This document shows positions 4,066 through 38,450 of a stretch of DNA of 64,000 nucleotides, piece by piece. Position 1 is the stretch's first letter; each line of letters opens with the position of its first letter. Both the position numbers and the translations under genes were made by a program. The DNA is from an uncultured archaeon. Its GTDB lineage: Archaea; Aenigmatarchaeota; Aenigmatarchaeia; Aenigmatarchaeales; DAIDAN01. A model generated the notes under the pieces. The model saw only the letters and a program-made list of their open reading frames with translations, ran no database searches and was not told where the DNA came from. The DNA lies in NCBI GenBank assembly GCA_964545795.1, contig CAZJGC010000003.1, forward strand, positions 738 through 64,737, in the 5' to 3' direction.

Positions 4066-4113
4066 TATAACACCTTTATATTTTTATTCATATTTCACAA
4101 CATATTCACATGA

Positions 4114-4136
4114 ACCCCTTTGTTTCCTATGGAACT
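4114..4136 (-). promoter_or_regulatory. origin recognition box (ORB-A) with G-string
   Basis: Minus-strand read GTTCCATAGGAAACAAAGGGGT. It matches the archaeal ORB consensus (TTCCA-nn-GGAAAC-GAA-GGGGT) at nearly every position. Confidence 0.55.
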
Positions 4137-4174
4137 TCACGTATAAGTATTATTGATTATACGTTAATCACGTT

Positions 4175-4197
4175 ACCCCTTCATTTCCTATGGAAAA
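4175..4197 (-). promoter_or_regulatory. origin recognition box (ORB-B) with G-string, direct repeat of ORB-A
   Basis: Minus-strand read TTTTCCATAGGAAATGAAGGGGT. Overlaps the last codons of the PAP2 ORF. Confidence 0.55.
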
Positions 4198-4654
4198 TTG
4201 CACGTGAATATTTTGTGAACATTTTTATAACAACATCGCCTATAAAATAACCTAACACAGAACCTCCAACAACATCATACCATGTATGAAACCCTGTATA
4301 AACCCTGCCAAATGCCGTAATTAACCCTGCTATTAAACCAACAGCAAAAACAACCTTGTTCACGCGCATTATTCTTGTTTCACAGAATGCAAGTGAAGCA
4401 TGTGAACTTGGAAATGAAGGAGATTTTCCTAAACCATAAGGCCTTGGAATATTGAAAACCATTTTCAAAGCTTCCGAAACACCAAGAGCAACAAAAAATG
4501 CCAAAACAGATATCTTAGACTTCTGCTTGTCGCCTGTGAAATAAAAATATAACGGTATTATAAAAACCAACAGGAAGGGCAGGAAGGCGGATGCATAATA
4601 AACAGGTTCGCACAAAATCTGACCTGAGCATAAAAATTCATTCATAAAAACCAC
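4181..4654 (-). CDS. PAP2-family (type 2 phosphatidic acid phosphatase-like) membrane phosphatase
   Basis: KxxxxxxRP-like, PSSHA and YTGFHxxxDV motifs; multiple TM segments. Confidence 0.7.
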   Translation of the reverse strand: MVFMNEFLCSGQILCEPVYYASAFLPFLLVFIIPLYFYFTGDKQKSKISVLAFFVALGVSEALKMVFNIPRPYGLGKSPSFPSSHASLAFCETRIMRVNKVVFAVGLIAGLITAFGRVYTGFHTWYDVVGGSVLGYFIGDVVIKMFTKYSRAIFHRK

Positions 4655-4670
4655 ATTTTATAACACTGTT

Positions 4671-7304
4671 TTATATTTTAACAACTGTTCCAACATATCC
4701 GTCCTTCTCAAAATTCAGTTGCCCTCCGCATTCGGGGCACTTGCCAACAAGAGGAATTCTTCTGAAAGACCATTTGCATTTAATGCACGAAACAGCATCA
4801 AAACCCTCCAATATAGTCTCCTGAGCAGGTTTTGATGAAAAAACTTCAAAAAGACTCTTCTGTCTTGAACCTTCAAGAAGTTCAGCCTTATCCACGCCGC
4901 ATGCTTTAAAAATTCTCTCTATAGGAGGCAATATCTGGTTCTCTATATAATATTTTGAATCAATTTCAAGCCCCTTCTCTTTAACATATTCAGGGTCCTC
5001 TGCCCTTTTTGACAAGAGTTGGTTTCCCTTAATTATAACATAAGAAATTCTCTCTCCAACTGTTATGTTTCTTGTCGCATCTCTTGCATTTATCTTCTTT
5101 GCAAGCTCAACATGCGGTTGCACGCCGTCATAACTGTTCAGCGATTTGGTTATTCCTTTAACAATAGAAAGCTTTTCTAATGGTATTTTGCCTTCAGAAA
5201 GGCTTTTTATAACCTCTCTGACGTATTTAGACGCTTTTATTATATCTCCTTCCTTAAGAATTATATTTAATACGTTCATCATTGTTTCCCCTGTAAGTGA
5301 ACACCAATCCCTTCTAACAGTTTCTATTCCCTTCATTTCTATTTTATTTTCACCTTCTTCAAATTTCCAGCCCGCATATCGCTTCTTTGTAATAATAAGG
5401 AATGTTTTGTATGTTTTTTCAAATTTAAGGTTTAAAACTCCGGGCAATCTCTCTGAAACAAACTCAGAAATTTCTCTTCCTAACTTCTCTGCCTCCTCAA
5501 TATCAGATGTATTTGTTTCCACAAAAATAGAATCAGTATCGCCATAAACAACTCTTACAGGAAAATTCTCTTCAACCATTTTTTGCGTTTTCAGAATATT
5601 CTCCCTGCCATACGCCGTAACCGAGTTGGCAACATCCATAACATAAAGCCTTGCCCTTAAATAGCCTGTATAACCATATAAACTGTTAGCCATATCCTTT
5701 AAAGCCAACTGTTTTGCATTTAGCAATCTTTTTTCATCTCCTTCTGAAGATTTCATCCTTTTCTTAACAGCCGCGCGCGCTTCCATTAACTCCTTAAGAA
5801 CAGCTGGCAAAACCCCTTCCCTTACTTCAGGTTTCACAAATTTTACTCCCTGTGGGGTTGTGAAATGTTCAACATCATATTTATTATTAATAAGCAGAGT
5901 AGATGGGCATATATTGAATGTGCGTATTATGGACGGATATAGGCTTGTGAAATCAAGAACAACCACGCATTTATCTTTATACAACCCTGTAATGGGTTCA
6001 AGAACAATTGCGCCTTTAAGTCCTGCCTCCTCTCTTTCCTCTTTATATTTCATCAACTCGGCTGCTTCAGGTTTGCACGGCATTAGCATATTTCTCTTTC
6101 TAAATTCATGCAAAAGCCTGCACTCATGCCTCTGCGACTGTCCTCCTAAACTGTCCTGCAAAAGCAGACCTGATATTTTAGAAAGCTCAAAAAACTTGTC
6201 AATAAGGTTTTTTTCAATAACAAGAGCCAAAGCAAGCTCGGAGTCAACGCGGCAATACTCAACAAATTTGTTTAAATCCGCTGTATCCCCATTCCATAAT
6301 TTTTTCATTTCCTTTGGTCCTCCTACTTCAATTTTTTTCTTTCCAAGCATAGCCTCCGCTATTGTCCCCAAATCATATCTTTTAAATTTAACCCATGGAT
6401 CTCTTTTTATTATCTCATAAGGGTCAACAATAATGCGTCCTGATACAGAACACATATAACTGTTTTGCAGTTTTCTGCAGACAGAAGGCTTGCTTGACCT
6501 GCCAAAAGAACTGGAAACCCCAAGAACTTCCATTCTCTTTACAATATAAGGCAAATCAAAGTTGTTAATGTTATAACCTACTATAATATCAGGGTCAAAA
6601 GACTCTATTATATCGCTAAACTTTTCCAGCATCTGTTTTTCATCAGAACATATTATTGCATTGCCGTTCATACACTGCTTGCTAATAAGAACAGTTGTTT
6701 TTTTGCCGTTAAAATCAGGATAAAAAGCCATGCTTATCATGATTATCGGGTCTTTTTCAAAATCAGGCATTCTGTCATCGCTCTCAGATATGCATTCAAT
6801 ATCAAAACTAACATAACGCAGGGGCGCGTTCCCTTCTTTTTCTATTGTTCTTACTTTGTCTGCATCTATAGCCCTGCATTTTACGGTTTTCGTAAATGCT
6901 GGAGAACCTTCAATTTCAACCCATGACATTCCCCATAAATCATAATCAACCATAAACCTGTACTTAAAAAGAATGTCAGCCTCATAAACAGTTCCATAAG
7001 GTTTTAATCTCTCCTTTATTTCAGGTATTTTTCCCGGGTCTTTGCCCGTAATTTTCAAAACCTGTTTGGACTCATTATAACCAATTGGTATTATTTTTTT
7101 CTCAACATTTATAGAAACATTATAATCTTTTAACACTTCGCGTATTTTATCAGTGTCCTGAGAATCTATATAACAGTACGGAAGGAAATTCTTAAAGAAA
7201 GCGCATACTGTTTCTCCTTGTTCTGTTTTTCCAAAAAGCCTTACCAAAGGCTTTCCATTAAGCATAACATAATCACAATCAAGAATCTGCATTGCAACTC
7301 TCAT
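4671..7304 (-). CDS. polB: family-B DNA polymerase (PolB) with C-terminal zinc ribbon
   Basis: Exo motif FDIE, YGDTDS polymerase motif, K-x3-NS-x-YG motif, and C-terminal Cys4 ribbon (CIKCKW...CPECGG). At 877 aa there is no room for an intein. Confidence 0.95.
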   Translation of the reverse strand: MRVAMQILDCDYVMLNGKPLVRLFGKTEQGETVCAFFKNFLPYCYIDSQDTDKIREVLKDYNVSINVEKKIIPIGYNESKQVLKITGKDPGKIPEIKERLKPYGTVYEADILFKYRFMVDYDLWGMSWVEIEGSPAFTKTVKCRAIDADKVRTIEKEGNAPLRYVSFDIECISESDDRMPDFEKDPIIMISMAFYPDFNGKKTTVLISKQCMNGNAIICSDEKQMLEKFSDIIESFDPDIIVGYNINNFDLPYIVKRMEVLGVSSSFGRSSKPSVCRKLQNSYMCSVSGRIIVDPYEIIKRDPWVKFKRYDLGTIAEAMLGKKKIEVGGPKEMKKLWNGDTADLNKFVEYCRVDSELALALVIEKNLIDKFFELSKISGLLLQDSLGGQSQRHECRLLHEFRKRNMLMPCKPEAAELMKYKEEREEAGLKGAIVLEPITGLYKDKCVVVLDFTSLYPSIIRTFNICPSTLLINNKYDVEHFTTPQGVKFVKPEVREGVLPAVLKELMEARAAVKKRMKSSEGDEKRLLNAKQLALKDMANSLYGYTGYLRARLYVMDVANSVTAYGRENILKTQKMVEENFPVRVVYGDTDSIFVETNTSDIEEAEKLGREISEFVSERLPGVLNLKFEKTYKTFLIITKKRYAGWKFEEGENKIEMKGIETVRRDWCSLTGETMMNVLNIILKEGDIIKASKYVREVIKSLSEGKIPLEKLSIVKGITKSLNSYDGVQPHVELAKKINARDATRNITVGERISYVIIKGNQLLSKRAEDPEYVKEKGLEIDSKYYIENQILPPIERIFKACGVDKAELLEGSRQKSLFEVFSSKPAQETILEGFDAVSCIKCKWSFRRIPLVGKCPECGGQLNFEKDGYVGTVVKI

Positions 7305-7327
7305 GCTACATCCTTTGTTTTTGAAAC

Positions 7328-8203
7328 TTAAATTATTTTTTTATTTATTTCAACCCTGCCTGTATGCAACTCTATCTTTGCTGTTTGTTTCTCATTAATG
7401 CCAATAATTTTCACTCCATTATAATCTTTAATACCAACACCAGAGAAGCACAAAAAATAATCAGGAACTTCATCAAGTATGTTTTCTTCATAAATTCTTC
7501 CGGGATAGAAGCATCTTTTGCTAAGCACGGTTACAGGGTCTTTTGTATTAAAAACAAGAATCAATATATTATTAATTTTAACATAAACAGGATTTGAAGA
7601 GGCGAACAAAGAGTCTTTCTCTATTCTTGTCTCATTATCAAAAAATATTTTATAATCTCCGCAGTTTCCATTGAAACAAACAGTGCATTTCTTTCCTGAA
7701 ATTTTCGGAGTGTTTTTTATATTTGGATATTCTACAAACTCGGCATGCAGCACTTTATCTTTTACAATGCCGGAAACAAGAACAATTTCATCATTTATCA
7801 GTTTAATGCCATCTTTCAATCTTACCTTTATTTCGCCTGTTGGGTCTTCAATTTCAGCTTCATTGTTCTTAACATTTTTAACAATGCCTATAACAGATGC
7901 ATCACCAAAAACATTTGATATAGAAACAGTGTTTTTCTTTTTCACAAAATATTCGCTCATTTTCTGATAATATCTATTGTAAACTGCAACCAATTCATGA
8001 ACAGTATATTTCTTTTGCTCATGTTTCTTTTCAACCACTTCAAAAACATTTTCAAAAAAATCCTCTCCTATAACCAATGGTTTTTCTTTTTTTATTCGCT
8101 CAATAACTGCTTTAATCTCATGCTCGTTTAACCTGTTTATATGTTCGGCTGCTTTTGGTTCAACAAGAACTCCCATATCCATTATTTCTTTTATCACATT
8201 CAT
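7328..8203 (-). CDS. PolD small-subunit (DP1)/B-subunit-like protein: N-terminal DP1-type helical domain plus OB fold; phosphoesterase motifs not detectable
   Basis: N-terminus VIKEIMDMGVLVEPKAAEHI...PLVIGEDFF is like the DP1 N-terminal domain. OB-fold segment ASVIGIVKNVKNNEAEIEDPTGEIKVRLKD...IVLVSGIV matches the RPA/DP1 pattern xEDxTGxIxVxL. Synteny oriC-cdc6-DP1 as in PolD-bearing euryarchaea. No GDxHxG, GDxxDRG or GNHE motifs in the 130-aa C-terminus. Confidence 0.4.
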   Translation of the reverse strand: MNVIKEIMDMGVLVEPKAAEHINRLNEHEIKAVIERIKKEKPLVIGEDFFENVFEVVEKKHEQKKYTVHELVAVYNRYYQKMSEYFVKKKNTVSISNVFGDASVIGIVKNVKNNEAEIEDPTGEIKVRLKDGIKLINDEIVLVSGIVKDKVLHAEFVEYPNIKNTPKISGKKCTVCFNGNCGDYKIFFDNETRIEKDSLFASSNPVYVKINNILILVFNTKDPVTVLSKRCFYPGRIYEENILDEVPDYFLCFSGVGIKDYNGVKIIGINEKQTAKIELHTGRVEINKKII

Positions 8204-8213
8204 ACAAAACTCC

Positions 8214-9401
8214 TTAGTACAAAACCTCGCAAAGAACTTTCTTCATTTTCTCTTTGACAGTGTCGTCAACCATAAGATTTATTATTTTTGTGCGCCCATA
8301 TCTTCCTCTTGAAACATTTTTTGTGCTTATTATTCCAAACATATCAAGTTCAGATATAAGGTCTGAAACTCTTCTTTGAGTCAAAGGTTTTAACCCATAC
8401 TTCACGCAGTTTTTCTGATACTCTGAAAGAACATCTCCTGTAAGAACTTCTTTATTGTTTTCCAGCAAATCCAATATGGTCTGCATAACAATTTGGCTTT
8501 GTTTTGGCTGCGTCTTTACAATTTCAACAAATTTGTCAACATTTATTTTCTCTTCTGCTGAATCAACATGTTTTATTGTTACTTTCCTGCTTCCAGAACG
8601 CTCGGCAATCTCTCCTGCAACGCGGAGCAGATCCAAAGCCCGCCTTGCATCCCCATGCTCCTGTGCAGCAAGCGCAGCGCACTTCTCTATAACACCTTCT
8701 TCTATAACTCCTTCCGAAAAAGCAATTTCAGCCCTCTGCCTCAATATATCCTTTATCTGCGAAGCATTGTATGGAGGAAAAATAAGTTCTTCCTCAGAAA
8801 GAGATGATTTAATTCTTGTATCAAGAGTATTTACAAAACTAAGGTTGTTTGTTATTCCTATCAAACATATTTTTGCATTTTTCAATTCCTGATTTATTCT
8901 TGTCAGATTATAAATAATTTCATCTCCTGTCTTCTGCACAAGAGCATCTATTTCATCAATTATTAAAATCAAAATCTGTTTTTCAGAATCTATAACATCA
9001 AGAAATATTTTATATATCCTGTCAGTAGGAAGTCCTGTAAAAGGAACTTCTTTTCCAAGTTCTTTTAGTATTGTTGCCAATACCCTGTATTCTGTGTCTG
9101 CCACTTTTTTAAGTTTGCAGTTTATATAAACAGATTTTACTTTAAATTTCCTACTAGTTTCAATAAGTTTTTTTGTAACATAACATGAAATCAATGATTT
9201 CCCTGTTCCTGTTCTACCATAAATAAAAACATTGCTTGGTTTTGAACCAACAAGGGCAGGTGCCAAAATTTTGCCAAGTTCCTCTATCTGTTTTTCCCTA
9301 TGCAATATTTTACCAGGAACAAAACAAACAGAAAGAGCATCCCTGTCATTAAATAAACATTGAGATTGTATAAAATCATTAAATATTTTTTCCAAACTCA
9401 T
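8214..9401 (-). CDS. cdc6: Orc1/Cdc6 replication initiator
   Basis: AAA+ Walker A (GRTGTGKS) and Walker B (LILIIDEIDAL) with C-terminal winged helix; lies next to an AT-rich ORB-bearing region. Confidence 0.95.
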   Translation of the reverse strand: MSLEKIFNDFIQSQCLFNDRDALSVCFVPGKILHREKQIEELGKILAPALVGSKPSNVFIYGRTGTGKSLISCYVTKKLIETSRKFKVKSVYINCKLKKVADTEYRVLATILKELGKEVPFTGLPTDRIYKIFLDVIDSEKQILILIIDEIDALVQKTGDEIIYNLTRINQELKNAKICLIGITNNLSFVNTLDTRIKSSLSEEELIFPPYNASQIKDILRQRAEIAFSEGVIEEGVIEKCAALAAQEHGDARRALDLLRVAGEIAERSGSRKVTIKHVDSAEEKINVDKFVEIVKTQPKQSQIVMQTILDLLENNKEVLTGDVLSEYQKNCVKYGLKPLTQRRVSDLISELDMFGIISTKNVSRGRYGRTKIINLMVDDTVKEKMKKVLCEVLY

Positions 9402-9438
9402 TTTATTACAATGGAAATAAAGGTATTTATATTTTTAT

Positions 9439-9464
9439 AACCTTTTTTTCCTATGGAAATTCAC
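9439..9464 (-). promoter_or_regulatory. ORB element 1 of oriC (mini-ORB dyad, weak G-string)
   Basis: AACCTTTTTTTCCTATGGAAATTCAC; same dyad core as ORB-A and ORB-B. Confidence 0.5.
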
Positions 9465-9623
9465 TAAAATACAGTGACACACCCTTTCTTTTCCTTTAGA
9501 AACATTTTTAGAAATTAAATAAGTAATAAAAATTATTATATTAACTTTTCAGTAATAATTTTCATATAAATATAACATTGTTATATACTATATTTAATTT
9601 AAAAATAAATTATAAATAACAAA

Positions 9624-9649
9624 TTTCTATAAGAAATGATAGGGGGTCT
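9624..9649 (+). promoter_or_regulatory. ORB element 2 of oriC (degenerate dyad plus GGGGGT G-string), inverted relative to ORB-1
   Basis: TTTCTATAAGAAATGATAGGGGGTCT aligns 16/21 with the ORB-B reverse complement. Confidence 0.45.
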
Positions 9650-9667
9650 AAAATAATAATTATAAAT

Positions 9668-21944: not shown

Positions 21945-22068
21945 CACTGTTATATTTATTGTGAGACATAAAAATAATAGAAAAAACAAAAACATTAAAA
22001 TTTCTAAGTATTTTGGCGATTAGAGCCAAAATTTAATTTTTATAAAACTCTATTCCTAATATAGTAAT

Positions 22069-22365
22069 ATGCGCAGGAAAAAGAGAAAACATGACAGAAA
22101 AGTAGCTAAAGGCATAGATTATGAGAAATTGGCTAAGATATGGTATGTTATTGGGGATTGGATACATGTTGCGGAAATATCCAGGAGAACGAAGATAAAT
22201 GAATCAACAGTAAGATGGTATCTTGACAAATATTTGAACAATGCCATAGAACAGGAGAGAATTTCGCCAACAATAAAACTGCGTCTTGTCAGGTTAAAAC
22301 CGAATATGGACCTAAAATCTTATATAAAGGCATTGGAATTGATAAGGAAAGTCAAGACCGGTTAA
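22069..22365 (+). CDS. small basic hypothetical protein, possible wHTH
   Basis: 98 aa, basic N-terminus, helical. Confidence 0.3.
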   Translation: MRRKKRKHDRKVAKGIDYEKLAKIWYVIGDWIHVAEISRRTKINESTVRWYLDKYLNNAIEQERISPTIKLRLVRLKPNMDLKSYIKALELIRKVKTG

Positions 22366-22702
22366 TAGAATCAGCTATTATTTCAAGCCTGTTTTTATAG
22401 ATATTTACTTTTCCTTTTACTTTAATATAATCTCCTTTTTTAATGTTAAAATGATTTTTAAAGGCAACAACAAGTATTTCTGATGCATTGTCTGCTATAT
22501 TAATAAACATATTTCCTGATTTTTCATAGACAGAATTAACATAACCATACGTGATGATTTTGTCTCCTGACATGGATTTTTTTATGTCTGATATTTTTAC
22601 TGCTTTCACTTCCATTGTTTGTGTTATAAAAACTATTAATAATATTCCAATAACAGAGGCGAATATAGAGAGTTTAAGCAGTGTTTCATCTCTCATGTTC
22701 AC
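22352..22702 (-). CDS. membrane-anchored OB-fold (tRNA_anti-like) protein
   Basis: N-terminal TM, then OB-fold pattern (YVNSVYEKSGNMFINIADNASEILVVAF...GDYIKVKGKV). Confidence 0.5.
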   Translation of the reverse strand: MNMRDETLLKLSIFASVIGILLIVFITQTMEVKAVKISDIKKSMSGDKIITYGYVNSVYEKSGNMFINIADNASEILVVAFKNHFNIKKGDYIKVKGKVNIYKNRLEIIADSINRS

Positions 22703-22709
22703 ACCATGT

Positions 22710-23243
22710 TCACGTTAATTTCACGCTGTAAATTTTCTCATATACAGAACCATCTTTGGTAAGCGTTGATTTAAATAGTGAAATTTCTGACACAATTAAT
22801 ATTCCAAAATCCGTATTTTTGAATTTCTCCAGAATTTCTTTTATGTTGTGGTTTGCTGATTTAACTCTTGCTAGTGTTATGTGGGGTGCATGATTTTTCT
22901 CCTTTTCAAAACCTAATTCTTTAAGTTTGTTGTCAATTGCAACTGCTATATCATAAAATGTTTTGCTTTCAGCGCCTGCCCATACAACGCGTATGTAATT
23001 GTTGTTTGGAAAACAACCAATTCCTTTTATATTCATTTGAAATTTTTTGAATTTAGAGCATGTGTTTTTGATTATGTTTTTTATTTGTGTAATTTTGTTT
23101 TCATTGACATTGCCAAGGAATTTCAGTGTAATATGGAGGTTCTCCTGCGGCACAATCTTTATATCTCCTTCTAATTTGCGTTGTATATCTCTTAGTTTCA
23201 GTTTCAATGATTTATCCAAATCAATAGCAATAAAGCATCTCAT
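22710..23243 (-). CDS. thpR: RNA 2',3'-cyclic phosphodiesterase (2H family, ThpR/LigT)
   Basis: Two H-x-T-x motifs (HITLKF and HITLAR). Confidence 0.85.
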   Translation of the reverse strand: MRCFIAIDLDKSLKLKLRDIQRKLEGDIKIVPQENLHITLKFLGNVNENKITQIKNIIKNTCSKFKKFQMNIKGIGCFPNNNYIRVVWAGAESKTFYDIAVAIDNKLKELGFEKEKNHAPHITLARVKSANHNIKEILEKFKNTDFGILIVSEISLFKSTLTKDGSVYEKIYSVKLT

Positions 23244-23372
23244 TTTAAGAATATGTGTTTAACATATATTTAATATTATATAATTGCTTAAATATTATTA
23301 TTGTTATTGTTATAAATAAACATATTAAAATTTATTTTCAGACATTTTAAAAAACTTGCGAGTAGTGATTTT

Positions 23373-25691
23373 ATGAAAGCTGTAGTTAACGGTATTAATA
23401 AAAAAATAATAGAGGATTTTTCTATATCTGATAAAAGAAGCATAAATTTCTGGATATCAAGGTTGGAGAAATATTCAAAAAGCAAAGTTGTTTCTGCCTG
23501 TTTAAAGGTTGGTGTTGACAGGGAAATTGCTGAAGAAATAGCAGACAATGTTGACAGGTACTGCGATGAAAGTATGAAAATGTCTGAAGTAAGGCCTTTA
23601 ATATTTGCGTTTCTGAGCAAAAAAGATGCTGCTGCGGCAAGGAGATTCAGGGCAGGAGAAATATATGTAAGGACATCATCAGAAAACTATGAAAAATTTG
23701 ACAGAAGAAAAATTGTGAAATCTTTGTTAAGAGAAACAGCTATAAGCGAAAAAGACGCTGAATATATATCAGTTGAGACAGAAAAATTTATACGTGCGGC
23801 AAATCTGGATTACATATCTTCGTCTCTTCTAAGGGAGATAGTTAATATAAAACTTCTTGAGTATGGTTTTGAGGACATACATTCTGATTATACAAGAATA
23901 GGAAAGCCTGTTTATGATATAACACAATTAATAAACATAGGAGACAATGAAAATGCAAATTTGCAGTATAATCCAGAAACAATACATAAGCTTATAGCCG
24001 ATAATGTTTTGCGCGAATATGCGCTTACAAAAGCAGTGCCAAGGCATGCTGCAGATGCCCATCTGCGCGGCATAATACATATTCATGACATGGATTACTT
24101 TGTTCTTCGTCCCTTCTGTTTTTCGCATGATTTGCGTTTCTTTCTAAAAAATGGCTATAAGGCAGATGGTCAAGGAATACATACAGCAGCAGCAGGTCCT
24201 GCAAAACATGCTTCTGTTGCTATACTTCATGCAGCCAAAATATTGGCAAGCGCTCAGACAAACTGCGGAGGAGGTCAGGGATTCAACTGGTTTAATGTGC
24301 TGCTTGCTCCATATTTGAAAGGAATGAATTACAAACAAATGAAACAAATGGCTCAAATGTTTCTTTTTGAGATGTCGCAAATGTATGTGGCAAGAGGCGG
24401 ACAGACAGTTTTCTCTTCAATAAACATAGAGCCGGGAGTTCCTAAGGTTCTTGAAGATGTGCCTGCTGTTCTTCCCGGAGGCGTTACAGGGAAAGACACT
24501 TATGCAGATTATTATGATGAAATAAACCAGTTTTTCAGGGCTTTTATAGATGTTTACACTGAAGGAGACGCTTATGGAAAGTTGTTTAATTTTCCAAAAT
24601 GCGAGGTTAAAGTTTCAAAGAAGGACTTTTCCAAACATAGAGAAGAAATGGAGATGGTGTCAAAACTTGCTGCAAAGTTCGGAACTCCGTATTATTTCAT
24701 ACAACAGGATTATATGCCGGAATACAGTTGTTATCAGTGTTGCGCATATCTTATGCCCTTGAGCGAGCAGAATACTGATAATGATCTGTATAATGGAACA
24801 ACGCGCGGCGGAGCTTTGCAGGTAGTTACAATAAACCTGCCAAGAATAGGTTATGATGCAAAAGGGGATGATGATAAGTTATATGAATTGTTAAGAGAAA
24901 GAATGAATATAGCAAAGGATGTTTTGCTTGCAAAGAGGGAAATAATAAAAAAGAGAATGAAACAGGGATTGTTGCCGTTCTTGTCTCAAAGCATAGATGA
25001 TAAAGGAACCCCATATCTTGTTGTAGACAAACAGAGTTTGGAGATAGGCATGGTTGGTTTGAATGAAATGCTTCAGGCGCATACAGGTCATGAACTGCAT
25101 GAGGGTGTTTTGGAATTTGGTCTTAAATTTATTAAGAAAATGACTGATATAGCAAGGGAATTCTCTGAAGAAACAGGCCTTAAATTTGTTGTTTCAAGAA
25201 CTCCTGCAGAGTCAGCGGCTTATAGATTGGCTTCTCTTGACATGAAAGAGTATAATGGAAAGGCTATTGTTCAAGGTGACAAAGAAAAGAAGTCTGTATA
25301 TTATACAAATGGCAACCATGTTCGCCCGTCTGCTGACGTGCCTCTTATAGAGAGAGTTAAAATAGAAGCATCTTTCTCGCCTTTGCTTATGGGAGGGACA
25401 ATGTCCCATATATGGCTTGGCGAAGCAAACCCCAGCGCAGAGGCTCTTACAAAGTTTACTGAGAATATAACAAAGAAGACGCTTATGGGATACTTTGCAT
25501 ATACAAAGGATATGACTGTATGCAAAAACTGCATGTTTGTGGCTCCCAACATGCTTAAAACTTGTCCTAAGTGCAATAGCAGCAATGTAGACTGGTATTC
25601 AAGAATAACAGGGTATTATCAGAAAGTATCAGGCTGGAATGCAGGAAAATTGCAGGAACTCTATGACAGGCGCAGATATACTGTTTCATAA
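23373..25691 (+). CDS. nrdD: anaerobic ribonucleoside-triphosphate reductase (class III RNR)
   Basis: C-terminal glycyl-radical region SRITGYYQKV, preceded by a Cys4 zinc ribbon (CKNCMF...CPKCNS); 772 aa. Confidence 0.85.
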   Translation: MKAVVNGINKKIIEDFSISDKRSINFWISRLEKYSKSKVVSACLKVGVDREIAEEIADNVDRYCDESMKMSEVRPLIFAFLSKKDAAAARRFRAGEIYVRTSSENYEKFDRRKIVKSLLRETAISEKDAEYISVETEKFIRAANLDYISSSLLREIVNIKLLEYGFEDIHSDYTRIGKPVYDITQLINIGDNENANLQYNPETIHKLIADNVLREYALTKAVPRHAADAHLRGIIHIHDMDYFVLRPFCFSHDLRFFLKNGYKADGQGIHTAAAGPAKHASVAILHAAKILASAQTNCGGGQGFNWFNVLLAPYLKGMNYKQMKQMAQMFLFEMSQMYVARGGQTVFSSINIEPGVPKVLEDVPAVLPGGVTGKDTYADYYDEINQFFRAFIDVYTEGDAYGKLFNFPKCEVKVSKKDFSKHREEMEMVSKLAAKFGTPYYFIQQDYMPEYSCYQCCAYLMPLSEQNTDNDLYNGTTRGGALQVVTINLPRIGYDAKGDDDKLYELLRERMNIAKDVLLAKREIIKKRMKQGLLPFLSQSIDDKGTPYLVVDKQSLEIGMVGLNEMLQAHTGHELHEGVLEFGLKFIKKMTDIAREFSEETGLKFVVSRTPAESAAYRLASLDMKEYNGKAIVQGDKEKKSVYYTNGNHVRPSADVPLIERVKIEASFSPLLMGGTMSHIWLGEANPSAEALTKFTENITKKTLMGYFAYTKDMTVCKNCMFVAPNMLKTCPKCNSSNVDWYSRITGYYQKVSGWNAGKLQELYDRRRYTVS

Positions 25692-25697
25692 GGGCAT

Positions 25698-25745
25698 GTG
25701 AACATGTGAACAACACGTGAACATAACGTGAAATTTGACGTGAAG
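25698..25745 (+). repeat. iteron-like array: 5 direct GTGAA(C) repeats at 8-12-bp spacing
   Basis: catGTGAACatGTGAACaacacGTGAACataacGTGAAAtttgacGTGAAG, immediately after the nrdD stop codon. Confidence 0.85.
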
Positions 25746-25791
25746 TAAAACTTTAAAAGTTTGTATTTTCATAATTTAGAAAGGTGATAGA

Positions 25792-26061
25792 ATGGGTAAG
25801 ATAACAATATTTACTTCAAAGACATGCACAAAATGCCCCCAAGCCAAAGCAATTGTTGAGGATGTTGCTAAAGAGATCGGGTGCGAAGTTGAATATGTTG
25901 ATATTGAAAAAGAGCTTTTTAGGGCTCTTGAAAATCAGATAGCCACTGTACCTTCTGTTATGGTTAATGGAATTATTGTATCAAGAGGGGAAATACCTAA
26001 AAAAGAGGATATATTATCAGTTCTTAATGGAAGTGAATGTTCACGTGAACAAAAAGAATAA
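25792..26061 (+). CDS. glutaredoxin-like/NrdH-like redoxin
   Basis: Thioredoxin fold with a CTKC active-site motif. The C-terminal codons (SREQKE) are encoded by the first GTGAA repeats of the next array. Confidence 0.55.
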   Translation: MGKITIFTSKTCTKCPQAKAIVEDVAKEIGCEVEYVDIEKELFRALENQIATVPSVMVNGIIVSRGEIPKKEDILSVLNGSECSREQKE

Positions 26062-26144
26062 TTGTGAACAAAATGTGAACAACACGTGAACTTAATATAA
26101 ACTTCACGTGAACTTGTGAATATTCACGTGAAGGTGTCGTGAAA
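26033..26144 (+). repeat. iteron-like array: 9-10 direct GTGAA(C/T/G/A) repeats phased at 11 (or 22) bp, including the 12-bp palindrome GTTCACGTGAAC
   Basis: Repeat starts at 26033, 26045, 26064, 26075, 26086, 26108, 26117, 26128 and 26139. The array sits between the NrdH-like gene and nrdG. Confidence 0.85.
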
Positions 26145-26863
26145 TGGAACATAAAAAATTAAAGATTGGCGGAATACTAGATATTTCTACAATAGATTAT
26201 CCAGGCAAACTCACATCTGTTATTTTTCTTCATGGTTGTAATTTCAGATGTCCATTTTGTTTTAACCCTGAACTTGTGCTAGGAAAACCTTCACGTGAAC
26301 TTCACGTGAAAGAAATAATTGAGAAAATAAGTAATTTCAGGGATTTTATAGATGCGGTAGTTATTACTGGCGGAGAGCCTACGTTGCAACCTCTTGAATT
26401 TTTATGTAAAGAACTTAGAAAAATTGGATTATTTGTAAAGATAGATACGAATGGTTCAAATCCTGATGTTATAGAAAATTTAATAAGAAAGGGGTTGATA
26501 GATTTTGTCGCTCTTGATATAAAAGCGCCTTTTAGCAAATATTCACGCGTGATTGGCAATGTGCGTGAACAAGACGTGAACAATATTAAAAAAACATTTG
26601 AGATGCTTTTGAATTTTGATATAGATTATGAATGTAGAACTCCTGTTGTTCCAAACGTGAATATGCAGCACATGCAGGAACTTGCAGAAGATGTGAAGCC
26701 ATCAAAAGTTTTTGTTCTTGAACAATTTAAATGTGAAAAAGGCACTTTGTCAGGAATAAAAGGCAGCATATCTCGTGAAGAACTTGTGAAAATAGCAAAA
26801 ATGTTCTCAAACAAAACAGTAAAGATAAGAACAGCAGAATCAGGCGAGGAAGTGGTAGCGTGA
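26144..26863 (+). CDS. nrdG: anaerobic RNR activating protein (radical SAM)
   Basis: CNFRCPFC radical-SAM cluster near the N-terminus. It contains three in-frame 11-bp-phased GTGAA pairs (26295/26306, 26565/26576, 26775/26786). Confidence 0.75.
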   Translation: MEHKKLKIGGILDISTIDYPGKLTSVIFLHGCNFRCPFCFNPELVLGKPSRELHVKEIIEKISNFRDFIDAVVITGGEPTLQPLEFLCKELRKIGLFVKIDTNGSNPDVIENLIRKGLIDFVALDIKAPFSKYSRVIGNVREQDVNNIKKTFEMLLNFDIDYECRTPVVPNVNMQHMQELAEDVKPSKVFVLEQFKCEKGTLSGIKGSISREELVKIAKMFSNKTVKIRTAESGEEVVA

Positions 26864-26931
26864 ATATTCACGTGAACTTCATGTTTTGTTCATATAGAAA
26901 TATTTAAATATTATCATGTTCACGTGAACAT
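26860..26931 (+). repeat. GTGAA repeats plus the perfect 16-bp palindrome ATGTTCACGTGAACAT (26916-26931) in the promoter/start region of the ExeA-like ATPase gene
   Basis: GTGAAT at 26860, GTGAAC at 26872, and the palindrome at 26916-26931. The track's GTG start at 26924 lies inside the palindrome. Confidence 0.8.
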
Positions 26932-26932
26932 T

Positions 26933-28036
26933 ATGATAGAAGACAAATTTGATGACTATGAAGAAAGCGTGAAACAATGGTTTCTAAAATTAAACTGGAA
27001 TGAGAACCCATTTACATTTAAAATATCTCCTGATATGTTTACTGGTTATGAAGTTCAGATAAAAGCTATTTTAAAGCATATATCAGAACAGCATAAAATA
27101 GCCATTCTTACAGGACCTACTGGCGCAGGAAAGACAACTATGCTAAAATGGACAGAAGCAAAACTGAAAGATGATAAAATAAAAATGATGTATTTGTCAA
27201 AACCCCCTTCTGACCCAAGCGAATTTGTGCGGATATTCACTAACTTTTTTGGAAGAAGCATTATTGAGAGAATTTTTATGAAAGAGGTAACAATTTTTAA
27301 TTTAAGCGATTATATAAACAGAAAACTTGGCAGCAGACATCTTGTTCTTTTGGTTGATGAAGCGCATGAAACAAACAAAAATGTTCTTGAATGGTTGCGA
27401 ATTCTTGTTGACCAAATAGAGAATGTTTCAATGGTTCTTGCAGGGTTGCCTTTGCTTGAGGATAAAATAAAAAACAAACTTGAGACACTTGACCAGAGAA
27501 TTACCACAAGAATAAAACTCACATCTCTTAATATGGCAGAAACAAGAGAACTTATTAGGAGAAGAATAGAATCTGTTGGCGGCGAAGATATAAAACCGTT
27601 TACTGAAGAGTCTGTTTCGCAGATTTTCAGAAAGACAGGAGGGTTTCCAAGAGAGGTAATAAAGTTATGCGACAAACTTGTGAATGATGCAATAGAGAAG
27701 AATGTTTATGAAATAACTGCTGATAACATTTCTGAATATAAGGAAATAAGCGAAGAACCTGTTTCCAAGTCGGTTCAACCAAAATTCTCTTTGAAGGAAC
27801 TTCCATACAAACAGAGGAAAGTATTGGAAATATTGTCTGATAGCGATTGGCTTACTCCGTCAGAGGTTGCAGAAAGACTTGGCGGTTCTTATAAGTCTGA
27901 GTATCATGCAATCCGTTCCATGAACAATATTCTTAAGAGGCTTATGAAGTGCGGATTTGTAGAAAGAGAAACAAAAGGCAAAACATTTATCTATAAACTT
28001 ACACCAAAAATTAAAACACTTTTGGTGGAGGCGTGA
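26933..28036 (+). CDS. ExeA/GspA-like AAA+ ATPase (AAA_22-type) with C-terminal winged-helix domain
   Basis: NPFTFKISPDMF N-terminal ExeA-type motif, Walker A GPTGAGKTT, Walker B LLVDEAHE, and a C-terminal wH (LTPSEVAERLGG...GFVERETKGKTFIYKLT). The likely start is the ATG at 26933 rather than the track GTG at 26924. Confidence 0.55.
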   Translation: MIEDKFDDYEESVKQWFLKLNWNENPFTFKISPDMFTGYEVQIKAILKHISEQHKIAILTGPTGAGKTTMLKWTEAKLKDDKIKMMYLSKPPSDPSEFVRIFTNFFGRSIIERIFMKEVTIFNLSDYINRKLGSRHLVLLVDEAHETNKNVLEWLRILVDQIENVSMVLAGLPLLEDKIKNKLETLDQRITTRIKLTSLNMAETRELIRRRIESVGGEDIKPFTEESVSQIFRKTGGFPREVIKLCDKLVNDAIEKNVYEITADNISEYKEISEEPVSKSVQPKFSLKELPYKQRKVLEILSDSDWLTPSEVAERLGGSYKSEYHAIRSMNNILKRLMKCGFVERETKGKTFIYKLTPKIKTLLVEA

Positions 28037-28042
28037 TAAATT

Positions 28043-28600
28043 TTGTTGGTTATTTCTATTGTTGGAATGCCGGGTTCAGGAAAAACTACAGTGGCAAAAA
28101 TAATCAAACAAGAGTTTAATGCATATATGTACAGCAGCGGAGATGTTATAAGGGATGAAATAAAAAGGCGTGGATTAAGATATACAAAAGAAAATGACAA
28201 GAAAGTTTCGGAATGGTTTCATAACGGCAGAGAGAATCTTATTGTCAAAAGGGTTGTGAGTAAAATAAAGAAATCTAAAAAAGATATTGTTGTTGTAGAA
28301 GGTTTGATAACAGAATCAGAGGAAAAATATCTTGAAAAATTGTTTGATGTCGTGCTTATATCTGTTAAAGCCCCAGCGAGAATTAGGCATAAAAGAATAA
28401 TGGAAAGAAAAAGGTTTGGTTCTCAGACAAGCCGCGAATATATACTGAAAAGAGACAGGCGTGAAAAGAGTATGGGTATTGAAAAACTGATAAAACATGC
28501 AAAATATACAATTAACAACAACTCTTCTGAAAAAGAACTTAGAAAGAAGGTAGTTGAAGTTGTGAATAAAATATTAGAACAGAGAGCAAAGAAAGTTTAA
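28043..28600 (+). CDS. P-loop nucleotide kinase, UPF0200/dephospho-CoA-kinase-like
   Basis: IVGMPGSGKTT Walker A at the extreme N-terminus; 185 aa. Confidence 0.5.
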   Translation: MLVISIVGMPGSGKTTVAKIIKQEFNAYMYSSGDVIRDEIKRRGLRYTKENDKKVSEWFHNGRENLIVKRVVSKIKKSKKDIVVVEGLITESEEKYLEKLFDVVLISVKAPARIRHKRIMERKRFGSQTSREYILKRDRREKSMGIEKLIKHAKYTINNNSSEKELRKKVVEVVNKILEQRAKKV

Positions 28601-28644
28601 ATATTTAAATACTTATTAGAATAAATAAATTAAGAGGTGGTTTA

Positions 28645-28905
28645 ATGGAGCAGAGAGTTCGTGGAAGAGATTTAATAGGAAAAGTTGTTGTATCCGAGGA
28701 AACAGGCAGAAAGTTTGGAAATGTTGGTGATGTTAATTTTATAACAGAAAGCGGAGAACTCATGAATATAATAATTACAAATCAGACAAAGCACGCTGCT
28801 GATTTGCAATTAACAGAAGATGAGAAAGGAAGATTAATGATACCTTTTTCTGCAGTTCGTTCTGTTGGAGATTTTGTAATAATTGCTGAAAAAGACATTG
28901 TTTAA
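28645..28905 (+). CDS. PRC-barrel domain protein
   Basis: RDLIGKVVVSEETGRKFGNVGDV pattern. Confidence 0.55.
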   Translation: MEQRVRGRDLIGKVVVSEETGRKFGNVGDVNFITESGELMNIIITNQTKHAADLQLTEDEKGRLMIPFSAVRSVGDFVIIAEKDIV

Positions 28906-29066
28906 GTTCTTGATGTGAATTTTAATATTATTTATTATTATATTCCACCGCAAGGCAAATCTACGTTTGTGTTTGCCAAGAATATGGTTGAACTTGCAAT
29001 TATAATTTTGCTTTCTGCGCCTACTGCAGCAGTTTTTATTTTGTCAAAAAATAAATTCTGAAATTT

Positions 29067-31935: not shown

Positions 31936-32128
31936 TGCGTGGGTTGTTTTATAAAATATATATTATTATTTATATTTTAAGAAATATTTGTAATATAATA
32001 TTTATAATAAAATATATCTTGCAGGATATTTAATAAAAAACATATGACATAAAAAATATATTTTAAAACATAAATAAGAAAACACTAATTTTAAATAGGG
32101 GTAAAGATAATTATGAATAGGTGTTAGT

Positions 32129-32989: not shown

Positions 32990-33258
32990 ATTAAGGTTGT
33001 TTTTAACTAAATATAGATTCTATTAGATAAATTTTATAATATATTTCCTTTTATATATTATGTATTATATTTATTAATAAATATAATTTATAATATATCT
33101 AATATAATAGGTATATTAAATAATATATTTTATAAAATATAATAAAAATGGAAAAAGTCACACAAAAAAAGTGAGAGTTCATGGGATTTGTATAGGAAAA
33201 GATAGAAAAATTGGCGAAATACTCGCAAAAATGGCAAAATCTGACAAAATTGCTAAAA

Positions 33259-36457: not shown

Positions 36458-37285
36458 ATGTTTATGTTTGTAATCAAAGCGTCAGGTAGGAGAGAAGAGT
36501 TTGACAAGGAAAAGATAAGAAGCACATGCAGAAGAGCAGGGGCTCCGGAATGGTTGGCTGATAAAATAGCGGACAGAATTGAAAAGAAGGTAAGGGACGG
36601 CATGAGAACAAAGGAAATATTAAAAATGACATTGCTTATGCTTGATAAGGAAATGCCGCATATTGCAGCAATGTATGACCTTAAAGGAGCTATAATGAGG
36701 CTTGGACCCGCAGGTTATGAATTTGAAAAGTTTGTATCGGAACTTCTGAAAAGATATGGATATAAAACAGTCACTAATGTTATTGTAAAAGGGAAGTGTG
36801 TATCTCATGAGGTTGATGTAATCAGTGAAAAAGGCAGTGAAAAAACCCTGATAGAGTGCAAATACCACAATTCTCTTGGAACATATACAGGCGTTCATGA
36901 AGTTCTTTACACAAAGGCAAGGTTTGATGATGTTATAAATAGTAAGGATAATAAAGATTTTACGAACTGCCAGATTGTATCAAATACAAGATTTTCTTCT
37001 GATGCAATAAAGTATGCCAAATGCATGAAAATAAAATTGTTAAGCTGGGATTATCCAAAAGAAAATATAAGAACCATGCTGGAAGACAAGAGGTTGTATC
37101 CCATAACAATTATAAAAAATTTAAGCAAATATGTGCAGGATAAACTTATTAGCAATGGCATAGTGTTTTGCATTGAATTGTTTGAAAACGATATATCAGA
37201 TTTGTCTTCTTACACGGGAATAAGCAAGAAGCGGCTTATTGAACTTAGGGAAGAAGCTGAAAAGATAATTTCAAAAAGTGATTGA
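36458..37285 (+). CDS. ATP-cone domain fused to an Mrr-type (PD-(D/E)XK) restriction-endonuclease-like domain
   Basis: N-terminal ATP-cone (VIKASGRREEFDKEKIRSTCRRAG). Central EFEKFVSELLKRYGY...HEVDVIS...ECKYH nuclease core. Confidence 0.55.
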   Translation: MFMFVIKASGRREEFDKEKIRSTCRRAGAPEWLADKIADRIEKKVRDGMRTKEILKMTLLMLDKEMPHIAAMYDLKGAIMRLGPAGYEFEKFVSELLKRYGYKTVTNVIVKGKCVSHEVDVISEKGSEKTLIECKYHNSLGTYTGVHEVLYTKARFDDVINSKDNKDFTNCQIVSNTRFSSDAIKYAKCMKIKLLSWDYPKENIRTMLEDKRLYPITIIKNLSKYVQDKLISNGIVFCIELFENDISDLSSYTGISKKRLIELREEAEKIISKSD

Positions 37286-38450
37286 ATGGATTATAAAACA
37301 AAAAGCCTGAACATGCATAAAGATAGAAAGGGAAAAATAGAAATAATTTCCAAGTTTCCTCTTGAAACAAAAGATGATTTGTCAGTTGCATATACTCCAG
37401 GTGTTTCAGAACCATGTAAGCTAATATCAGAGAATAATGCTGCTGTTTATGACTATACAATAAAAGGCAATTCTGTGGCTATTGTTACAGATGGTTCTGC
37501 TGTTCTTGGCCTTGGGAACATAGGCCCTGAAGCGGCGTTGCCTGTTATGGAAGGAAAAGCAGTGCTTTTCAAGAAGTTTGGAAATATAGATGCATATCCA
37601 ATATGCATTGCTACGCAGGAAACTGACAAAATAATAGAAGCAGTAAAACTTATATCTCCCGGCTTTGGAGGAATAAATCTTGAGGACATATCTGCTCCAA
37701 GATGTTTTGAAATTGAAAGACGATTAAAAAAAAGAACTGAACATACCTGTATTTCATGACGACCAGCATGGAACTGCGGTAGTTGTTCTTGCAGGCATGA
37801 TAAATGCATTGAAATTGTGCAATAAAGAAATAGAAGATGTAAAAGTTGTTGTTAATGGTGCTGGAGCGGCAGGTATTGCAATATCAAAAATTTTGGTATC
37901 AAAAGGCGTAAAAGATATAGTAGTATGCGATACAACAGGAGCCATATATGAAGGCAGAGAAAGTAACATGAACGAAGAAAAAATTAGAATTTCAAAAATT
38001 ACAAACAGGAATATGGTTCAGGGAAAACTGGAAGATTCTATAAAAGGAGCAGATGTTTTTATTGGTGTTTCTGCTCCAGGGGTTCTTACGCAGGAAATGA
38101 TTAGGTCAATGTCTGAGAAGCCAATTATTTTTGCAATGGCAAACCCTATACCAGAGATAATGCCTGATGAGGCAAAAAGCGCAGGAGCATTTATTGTTGC
38201 AACAGGCAGAAGCGATTTTCCAAACCAAATAAATAATGTTCTTGCTTTTCCGGGCATTTTTCGCGGTGCTCTTGATGCAAGAGCAAAGGATATAAATGAA
38301 GAAATGAAAATGGCTGCAGCAGAAGCGCTTGCAGGTTTTATAGAACCCACGCAGGAAAAAATAATACCCAATCCTTTTGACGGCGCTGAAAAGGCTGTTG
38401 CTGCCGCAGTTTCAAAAGCCGCGAGAGAAACAGGAGTATCTAATATATAA
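37286..38450 (+). pseudogene. NAD(P)-dependent malic enzyme split by a +1 frameshift at an A8 homopolymer (37726-37733)
   Basis: The 37286..37759 ORF encodes the N-terminal domain (YTPGV, GLGNIG, PVMEGKAVLFK). The 37797..38450 ORF encodes the NAD-binding domain. Removing one A restores ERRLKKELNIPVFHDDQHGTAVV, the canonical malic enzyme junction. Confidence 0.75.

Follow-up and report, generated by a model that had tools for sequence, protein, structure and literature searches.

A helically phased GTGAA array upstream of an Orc1/Cdc6-shaped ATPase gene is conserved across the Aenigmatarchaeota

What is a dense array of short GTGAA repeats doing in an archaeal operon for class III ribonucleotide reductase (RNR), and to which gene does it belong? 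The question is raised by a 64,000-nucleotide stretch of contig CAZJGC010000003.1 (assembly GCA_964545795.1) from an uncultured member of the Aenigmatarchaeota, referred to here as the window. A first-pass annotation of this DNA had described more than 25 copies of GTGAA(C) within 1.25 kb and had assigned them to the class III RNR (nrd) operon, with an operator for an nrd regulator among the candidate roles. Comparison with related genomes gives a different answer: the array is a phylum-wide feature of the ~0.5-1 kb upstream of the adjacent gene, which encodes a 367-amino acid AAA+ ATPase with a Pfam AAA_22 domain, a lid and a C-terminal winged helix (26933..28036, plus strand). This ATPase is the proposed reader of the motif.

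The expected number of GTGAA copies was taken from the rate outside positions 25690-26935, and the gaps between copies were compared with 20,000 random placements. Of the 76 forward GTGAA copies in the window, 26 fall within 25690-26935, where 0.99 would be expected (Poisson p = 8e-28). The annotated number was thereby verified, and every block of repeats that had been listed was found in its place. The same interval holds 13 of the 17 copies of GTGAAC, all nine copies of CGTGAAC, all seven copies of the palindrome TTCACGTGAA and 9 of 10 copies of CACGTG. A high background, raised beforehand as the case that would speak against a special element, is not seen, as the motif is not common in the rest of the 64 kb. 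Gaps of 10-12 bp make up 12 of the 25 between adjacent copies, compared with a mean of 1.3 and a maximum of 7 under random placement. Reverse-strand copies number eight, seven of which are the other half of a TTCACGTGAA palindrome. The perfect 16-bp palindrome that had been reported at 26916-26931 is ATGTTCACGTGAACAT, found exactly there, between the TATA box and the start codon of the ATPase gene.

The comparison covers 80 species-representative loci encoding relatives of the ATPase, with flanks of up to 8 kb, together with several metagenomic loci. Most of the 80 loci are labelled Aenigmatarchaeota; the rest carry the labels uncultured archaeon, Nanoarchaeota or, for a single locus, a bacterial bin. 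The source names of the ATPase homologs agree in placing the organism of the window in the Aenigmatarchaeota, a DPANN phylum. In total 200 ATPase relatives were detected, and per-species array counts cover 75 species. Across the 80 species the 500 bp preceding the ATPase gene hold 9-11 copies of CGTGAA/TTCACG per kb on each strand, versus ~0.25 per kb in the flanks, an enrichment of ~35-fold with or without nrd genes nearby. An unbiased scan for 6-mers in these upstream regions returned only pieces of TTCACGTGAA, with CACGTG enriched 60-fold, ACGTGA 43-fold and CGTGAA 38-fold. At least eight motif copies within 1.5 kb upstream of the gene were counted in 73 of 75 species (median 20, maximum 40). 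Spacings between copies on the same strand peak at 11 bp (333 pairs), 22 bp (147 pairs), ~32, ~42 and ~53 bp across the phylum, and those between inverted copies at 4, 15, 25, 36, 46 and 56 bp. The helical phasing that had been noted in this one genome is thus a property of the phylum, and the period of ~10.6 bp therefore puts all sites on one face of the DNA helix.

The array is also conserved in its position. The gene order around it reads (small winged helix-turn-helix (wHTH) gene), OB-fold/LigT, array, ATPase, (kinase), PRC, RadA and RPA, and deep ATPase orthologs with 33-43% identity keep the synteny, the putative recognition helix and the motif alike. ATPase homologs of the Nanobdellota have an altered helix, different neighbours and no array; at the two loci L088 and L090 no obvious array of any kind was seen, which makes this a contrast of presence and absence and not a switch of motif. 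Absence of the repeats from close relatives had been named as a sign of a recent selfish insertion. The relatives carry the array at the orthologous position, and a recent selfish insertion or a miniature inverted-repeat transposable element is rejected because that position is kept in 73 of 75 species.

In the window the array is threaded through the nrd operon, which consists of nrdD (23373-25691, with an NRDD domain and an ATP-cone), an 89-amino acid glutaredoxin/thioredoxin-like gene (25792-26061) and nrdG (26144-26863, radical SAM). LigT and a 116-amino acid OB-fold gene lie upstream of nrdD, and the ATPase gene is followed by an adenylate/CMP-kinase-like gene, a PRC-barrel gene, RadA and an RPA-like gene. 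The nrdD promoter (23244-23372) holds no copy of the motif. Only in some clades does the nrd operon stand between LigT and the ATPase gene; in others it is found several kb away on the opposite strand, or a class II RNR with NrdR takes its place. Where the nrd genes are located elsewhere or oppositely oriented, they are motif-free and the array stays upstream of the ATPase gene. Eight species with nrdDG 3-5 kb off on the other strand have 0-2 copies at nrd versus at least 20 upstream of the ATPase gene. At locus L007 the class II RNR and NrdR genes are found on the far side of LigT and the OB-fold gene, at a distance of at least 2.4 kb, whereas the array occupies the spacer immediately upstream of the ATPase gene. 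The nrd operon is accordingly a passenger, placed in this clade between LigT and the ATPase gene, and the assignment of the element to the RNR operon gives way to an association with the ATPase gene.

The distribution of copies inside coding DNA follows the same rule. Where the gap between nrdG and the ATPase gene measures at least 360 bp, the gap holds ~20-27 copies and nrdG 0-3 (mostly 0-1). Where it shrinks to 70-140 bp, as in this window, L002 and L008, nrdG itself holds 6-12 copies and the other operon spacers are filled too. LigT carries on average 5.2 copies in the 17 species in which it abuts the ATPase gene versus 0.94 in the 50 others (Mann-Whitney p = 8e-9, not phylogeny-corrected), and the deep ortholog L092 has the same LigT pattern. 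Coding DNA takes up the motif only in loci with a short spacer upstream of the ATPase gene, which argues for selection on the DNA itself. The first-pass annotation had come to the same view, and this part of it stands; the reason is closeness to the ATPase gene and not to the nrd genes. The phased pairs it had described as lying in frame inside nrdG are present but not in frame, as the members of each 11-bp pair fall in codon phase 1 and phase 0. A repeated peptide therefore cannot explain the pairs, and an amino-acid repeat artefact was ruled out on this ground. The pairs are located in variable segments of NrdG and are accompanied by amino-acid substitutions; the protein of this window has PSRELHVK where motif-free relatives carry KEMTVE-type residues. 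The requirement is for an array in roughly the first kb upstream of the ATPase gene, and the coding sequence there is adapted to it.

Which protein reads these sites? The ATPase itself was examined by sequence and by structure prediction. An AlphaFold2 model built with 44 homologs reached a mean pLDDT of 88.8, and a Foldseek comparison with the PDB returned full-length archaeal Orc1/Cdc6 structures at the top (1w5t, 2qby, 2v1u and 1fnn), with structural likeness to Orc1/Cdc6, MuB, TnsC and DnaA. The protein has the three-domain architecture of the Orc1/Cdc6 type, namely an AAA+ base, a lid and a C-terminal winged helix. No Pfam Cdc6_lid or Cdc6_C match was found in it, the NCBIfam model TIGR02928 scored 23.8 bits against a cut-off of 181.3, and hhalign of the ATPase with the Orc1 protein of the window gave a probability of 7%. 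The best NCBIfam match is to the ExeA-like TIGR03015 (E = 1.6e-29). A single-sequence search of the PDB yielded nothing significant, and a profile search gave MuB as its best match (E = 5e-5). The ATPase is thus Orc1/Cdc6-shaped and AAA_22/ExeA-like by sequence, and it is no sequence member of the Orc1/Cdc6 family. Its winged helix has Penicillinase_R/TrmB-like matches. Identity among the 120 closest database relatives is 52-71%, and Walker A, Walker B, several arginines and HAIRSxNNIL, the putative recognition helix, do not vary among the 44 homologs. The co-occurrence of this helix with the motif supports the ATPase as the reader, without proving it. A mobile-element origin of the ATPase was rejected, as no relatives were found on viral contigs.

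Database labels of the homologs include 'ExeA', 'general secretion pathway protein A' and, in Nanobdella, 'thymidine kinase'; all of these are probably misleading for an Orc-shaped protein associated with a DNA array. The last label is attached in NCBI and UniRef to the homolog of the cultured Nanobdella aerobiophila (L088; AP019769.1, 420845-437861), appears to stem from a weak Pfam TK match and is probably a misannotation. This homolog adjoins a tRNA and RtcB, not LigT and RadA.

The promoter of the ATPase gene offers the closest view of how the sites may act. A TATA-box-like sequence, AAATATTTAAATATT, is found at 26897..26912 on the plus strand with its centre ~26-27 bp ahead of the ATG at 26933, a position that would fit a leaderless transcript. 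It is preceded by a TTCACGTGAA palindrome (26867-26876) and followed by the 16-bp palindrome, which fills the interval from TATA box to start codon. A motif copy within ~90 bp upstream of the ATPase start was found in 70 of 75 species, the arrangement of site, TATA box and site is visible in many relatives, and lineages with a very short spacer retain the promoter-proximal copies. We infer that the palindrome at 26916-26931 serves as an autoregulatory operator, and autoregulation of the ATPase by promoter occlusion appears to be the most secure of the functional conclusions.

These observations are brought together in a proposal to which we give a probability of about one half: the GTGAA/TTCAC repeats would be the cognate sites of the adjacent ATPase, an AAA+ protein of the initiator clade that oligomerises there and represses its own TATA-flanked promoter. 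Of the candidate roles put forward at the outset, binding by the adjacent ExeA-like wHTH ATPase fits best, as the array tracks that gene across the 80 species. In this proposal the winged helix of each ATPase monomer would engage an AYGTGAA half-site, with one site per turn of the DNA, and contacts between AAA+ domains would join the monomers into an ATP-dependent filament on one side of the helix, much as DnaA behaves on 11-bp-phased boxes. The TTCACGTGAA palindromes could be the nucleation points. Since sites flank the TATA box and one of them fills the interval to the start codon, the assembly would occlude the ATPase promoter and the protein would repress its own synthesis. In the lineage of the window the filament would extend as well over the regions in which the glutaredoxin-like gene, nrdG and the OB-fold gene start. 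The ATPase may then be a regulator or architectural factor of an island of replication and repair genes comprising RNR, LigT, OB-fold, ATPase, kinase, PRC, RadA and RPA. A precedent for an Orc-shaped protein as a transcription factor is Orc1-2 of the Sulfolobales, an Orc1/Cdc6 paralog with AAA+, initiator-specific motif (ISM) and winged-helix elements, which is not an initiator and binds the motif ANTTTC in promoters at about -23 to -55 to regulate replication and repair genes (PMC6061795). Orc1-2, a DNA-damage regulator, differs in being a true Orc1/Cdc6 member that uses single motifs across a regulon, compared with a phased array of 20-40 copies at the protein's own gene.

Several points weigh against the proposal. 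The link between protein and motif consists of genomic association and a single contrast of helix and motif, that between Aenigmatarchaeota and Nanobdellota, and is to be read as suggestive. A second candidate for DNA binding, the small winged-helix protein, flanks the array in many species. The order 'TATA then motif copy' was recovered in only 29 of 75 species by a simple pattern scan with approximate start codons. The comparisons between species carry no correction for phylogeny, and the 17 species in which LigT adjoins the ATPase gene probably come from only a few clades. Finally, 20-40 sites are far above the usual need of a repressor, which makes it probable that the large arrays have a role beyond autoregulation.

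One such larger role, which we regard as unlikely though better placed than the other alternatives, is that of a second chromosomal origin. The ATPase would be its dedicated initiator, a helical oligomer of which melts an AT-rich stretch and recruits MCM; with similarly low confidence, the promoter-proximal sites would then represent initiator autoregulation as seen at origins beside orc1 or dnaA. An initiator-shaped protein beside an iteron-like array is the classical layout of an origin with its initiator gene, and the structural neighbours of the ATPase (Orc1/Cdc6, DnaA, MuB and TnsC) point the same way. So do the number of sites (median 20) and their phasing, which are nearer to arrays of DnaA boxes or mini-origin recognition boxes than to operators, and a neighbourhood rich in replication and repair genes. 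Relatives with long spacers have motif-free gaps of 50-160 bp between array blocks, which are AT-rich in L007 and L067 as read by eye. In L067 (complete chromosome CP070662.1) an irregularly spaced repeat, CTCACATTT, occurs in ~5 copies at 7180-7480, just upstream of the TTCAC array, and may be a degenerate variant of the array site.

A canonical origin is found elsewhere in the window. The orc1/cdc6 gene, with Cdc6_lid and Cdc6_C domains, lies at 8214-9401 on the minus strand, and the 266-bp spacer upstream of it (9402-9667) has the features of an origin. Origin recognition box (ORB) elements of the TTCCATAGGAAA type at 9447 and 9490 (minus strand) and 9625 (plus strand) flank an AT-rich stretch of ~120 bp, the duplex-unwinding element (DUE). 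Exact copies of TTCCATAGGAAA occur in the window only at 4123, 4184 and 9447, those at 9490 and 9625 being degenerate. Gene orientation switches and cumulative GC skew reaches its minimum at ~9.5 kb, not at 26.9 kb; the skew is only weak evidence on origins because it largely follows the gene strand in the window. As orc1, ORB elements and DUE stand together at 8.2-9.7 kb with the switch in orientation and skew, the GTGAA array is not the canonical origin. The same orc1/ORB/DUE layout was seen in L046, L078 and L082 at 5-6 kb from the ATPase locus. In these three genomes the origins (oriCs) beside orc1 hold ORB elements and a DUE and no GTGAA, on which ground the canonical Orc1 was rejected as reader of the array; a single TTCAC beside the ORB at 9447 of the window is probably due to chance.

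The presence of a canonical origin 17 kb away here, and 5-6 kb away in those three genomes, thus speaks against a second one at the array. In compressed lineages, including that of the window, the array lies inside transcribed coding DNA and no clear DUE is seen, the longest non-coding AT-rich stretches of the array region in the window measuring 39-47 bp. The ATPase is also outside the Orc1/Cdc6 family by TIGR02928, the Cdc6_C and Cdc6_lid domains and hhalign. In addition, the two complete chromosomes in the set measure only 0.83 and 0.87 Mb, and archaeal genomes of small size are generally taken to have one origin. The boldest form of the idea is given little weight as well: the Aenigmatarchaeota might possess a second initiator and origin pair independent of Orc1, or the first archaeal chromosomal centromere built on an AAA+ protein. 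The MuB/ExeA-related, Orc1-shaped ATPase would in either case polymerise on its phased array of 20-40 GTGAA copies, an array under such constraint that it enters neighbouring genes where intergenic space has been lost.

A centromere-like or chromosome-organising locus, at which the ATPase or a partner is the centromere-binding protein and which doubles as an autoregulatory site, is considered improbable. The nucleoprotein complex would in that case tag the chromosome for segregation or condensation. It draws on phased direct and inverted short repeats that flank the promoter of the presumed binder's gene. This is the design of parC/ParR and of the omega heptads, and the 11-bp iterons of R1 parC have such a double part with ParR. 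The palindrome shares TTCACGTGAA with bacterial parS, and the ATPase locus lies 5-17 kb from oriC in at least five genomes. That linkage is loose, however, because the flanks of most other loci, up to 8 kb long, contain no orc1. The resemblance to parS, which had been remarked on early, is limited to this one shared 10-mer and could be coincidence. No ParA, ParM, ParB, SegAB or SMC was found at the locus or among the 56 open reading frames of the window that were scanned, nor were ParB, ParA or SMC domains found in the conserved neighbourhood, and to our knowledge AAA+ proteins of the initiator clade are not partition motors.

The same low standing is given to the small winged-helix protein as reader of the motif, with the ATPase merely its regulated target. 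This protein of 98 amino acids (22069..22365, plus strand) is a weak winged-helix match without a Pfam family, and it may be either an alternative reader or a partner of the ATPase. Small winged-helix proteins commonly bind short palindromes, and its gene is a neighbour in ~68 loci; in roughly half of these it lies next to the array, on the side away from the ATPase gene. In ~16 species the gene is found between PRC and RadA, and in the window it lies 4.5 kb upstream. Where it is located elsewhere, however, it has no cluster beside it and the array keeps its place upstream of the ATPase gene; the ATPase also has a winged helix of its own with an invariant putative recognition helix. As for an operator of a class III RNR regulator or a NrdR box, copies do fill the spacers of the nrdD-grx-nrdG operon in this window, but the idea is hardly tenable because the nrdD promoter is motif-free and the array follows the ATPase gene, with no co-occurrence with nrd genes across genomes and NrdR seen in L007 only, beside the class II RNR and 2.4 kb from the array. 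An RNA element was dropped, as an Rfam scan of 22000-29000 gave no match at E <= 1 and the motif occurs in both orientations across the phylum. A scan for sigma-70 promoters and terminators, which is uninformative for an archaeon, reported two 'terminators' that are the palindromic repeats.

The design itself, phased short sites beside the gene of an AAA+ DNA-binding protein, is familiar from ORB/Orc1, DnaA boxes/dnaA and iterons. A close parallel is formed by archaeal ORB and mini-ORB clusters with orc1/cdc6, where short dyad-type repeats (TTC...GAA style) likewise lie upstream of a gene for an AAA+/lid/winged-helix protein and overlap its promoter. ORB elements are dyads of the TTCCAnnGGAAA type with a G-string, whereas the array consists of AYGTGAA/TTCACGTGAA sites, which are far more numerous, strictly phased and tolerated inside genes, with no clear DUE; the adjoining gene fails the Orc1 family models, and the real orc1 is located at 8214-9401. 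Clusters of DnaA boxes beside dnaA, at oriC and the autoregulated dnaA promoter, belong to another domain of life, differ in motif and are bound by DnaA domain IV instead of a winged helix; an origin role of the array is putative, and a separate canonical origin exists.

Plasmid systems resemble the array in design only. R1 parC/ParR and the omega heptads of pSM19035 have phased short repeats around the promoter of the binder's operon, which serve as operator and as scaffold of a higher-order nucleoprotein complex. ParR and omega are small dimeric ribbon-helix-helix proteins that act on plasmids together with a ParM or ParA motor, whereas the presumed binder here is a chromosomal AAA+ ATPase with no motor gene beside it. 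No plasmid or mobile setting was recognised for the array: it is chromosomal, its synteny is kept at least across the Aenigmatarchaeota, and neither a Rep or Par gene nor relatives on viral contigs were found. Bacterial parS (TGTTNCACGTGAAACA), a 16-bp palindrome, has the identical central 10-mer TTCACGTGAA and the array shares with it a location near oriC in some genomes; the array palindrome ATGTTCACGTGAACAT is one base shorter per arm, and most copies are isolated half-sites in direct repeat. Sites of the parS type are not known to be organised as direct-repeat arrays. The closest sequence relatives of the ATPase are MuB, TnsC and ExeA (AAA_22; MuB profile and TIGR03015). MuB and TnsC form ATP-dependent helical filaments on DNA, according to the titles of PDB entries 8xvb and 7m99. 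Neither is known to bind DNA with sequence specificity; both serve transposition, and ExeA serves secretion; we know of none of the three with this C-terminal winged helix or a cognate repeat array.

A search of the literature on the motif, on Aenigmarchaeota origins and on Orc1 of DPANN archaea found no description of the array element or of the ATPase family. As far as could be found, no earlier account exists of the motif or the protein family, nor of the array's conservation across the phylum and its spread into coding DNA. The DPANN archaea, including the Aenigmatarchaeota, are almost all uncultured, and little is known about control of their chromosomes. The locus offers a defined protein-DNA system with a motif of 5-7 bp, a phasing rule of one helical turn, a candidate reader and a conserved promoter layout. 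It also provides an unusually clean case of selection at the DNA level overriding coding, as the array runs through nrdG in one clade and through LigT in others. Should the ATPase be a true initiator or segregation factor, it would represent a new solution to a core task of the cell cycle; should it be a regulator, Orc-shaped transcription factors would extend beyond true Orc1 paralogs. The finding also bears on annotation, as the ExeA-type labels of its homologs are probably misleading.

The individual blocks of the array are arranged as follows. Array A (25698..25744, plus strand) consists of five head-to-tail (C)GTGAA(C) half-sites directly past the nrdD stop codon, with copies at 25698, 25706, 25717, 25728 and 25740 (spacings of 8, 11, 11 and 12 bp). 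Array B (26033..26143, plus strand) takes in the 3' end of the glutaredoxin-like gene and the spacer up to the nrdG start codon; its nine forward GTGAA copies span 26033-26139, the first two inside the glutaredoxin-like gene, and three of the nine are extended to TTCACGTGAA. Inside nrdG, two overlapping TTCACGTGAA palindromes 11 bp apart (26290..26310, plus strand; pair 26295/26306) encode the PSRELHVK segment. They are followed at 26542..26580 (plus strand) by one TTCAC and a CGTGAAC pair (26565/26576, 11 bp apart) in VREQDVN, at a position that holds four motif copies in L002, a 71%-identity relative. Five more GTGAA copies are found in the 3' half of the gene (26657..26790, plus strand), at 26657, 26693, 26733, 26775 and 26786, the last two again 11 bp apart. 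A GTGAA with the TTCACGTGAA palindrome at 26867-26876 lies over the nrdG stop codon (26860..26876, plus strand), on the upstream side of the ATPase TATA box, and the GTGAA copies ahead of the ATPase gene are those at 26860, 26872 and 26924. An outlying triple of TTCAC with 11-bp spacing (22698..22724, minus strand) lies across the junction of LigT and the OB-fold gene, overlapping the stop of the former and the start of the latter; it is kept in L002, and clusters of ~5-8 copies occur at or near the same junction in L005 and L009. In the nrdG genes of L033 and L017 the alignment shows an insertion of several hundred residues right past the CxxxCxxC radical-SAM motif, which is intein-like in look.

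A minor cluster of TTCAC/GTGAA-type copies (4094, 4105, 4136, 4199 and 4214; region 4094..4225) is interleaved with two canonical ORB elements. The exact ORB cores at 4123 and 4184 are each followed by a G-string (minus strand), have direct orientation and stand ~60 bp apart. This region, 4066-4230, is located between an Asn-synthase-like gene and a PAP2 gene and could be a remnant or accessory origin, or a meeting place of the ORB and GTGAA systems. Between it and orc1, at 4671-8203, an 877-amino acid family B DNA polymerase gene is followed by an open reading frame of 291 amino acids with a weak match to the small subunit of PolD (DP1). The pair fits the report that Aenigmatarchaeota are without DP2 and keep DP1 together with a PolB that bears a DP2-derived C-terminal domain (PMC12680538).

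Further observations concern the remainder of the window. Two TA-rich tandem repeats with a period of ~14 bp and nine copies each (31949-32072 and 33010-33141) lie in its part of lowest GC content (~28%) and flank two 120-amino acid open reading frames without family matches. A malic enzyme appears to be divided between two adjacent frames, 37286-37759 encoding the N-terminal domain and 37797-38450 the NAD-binding domain; the gene may truly be split, or a frameshift or an assembly error could account for this. Directly ahead of it, the frame at 36458-37285 combines an N-terminal ATP-cone with a Mrr-type restriction-endonuclease and an AF1548-like C-terminal domain, and its product could be a nucleotide-sensing nuclease.

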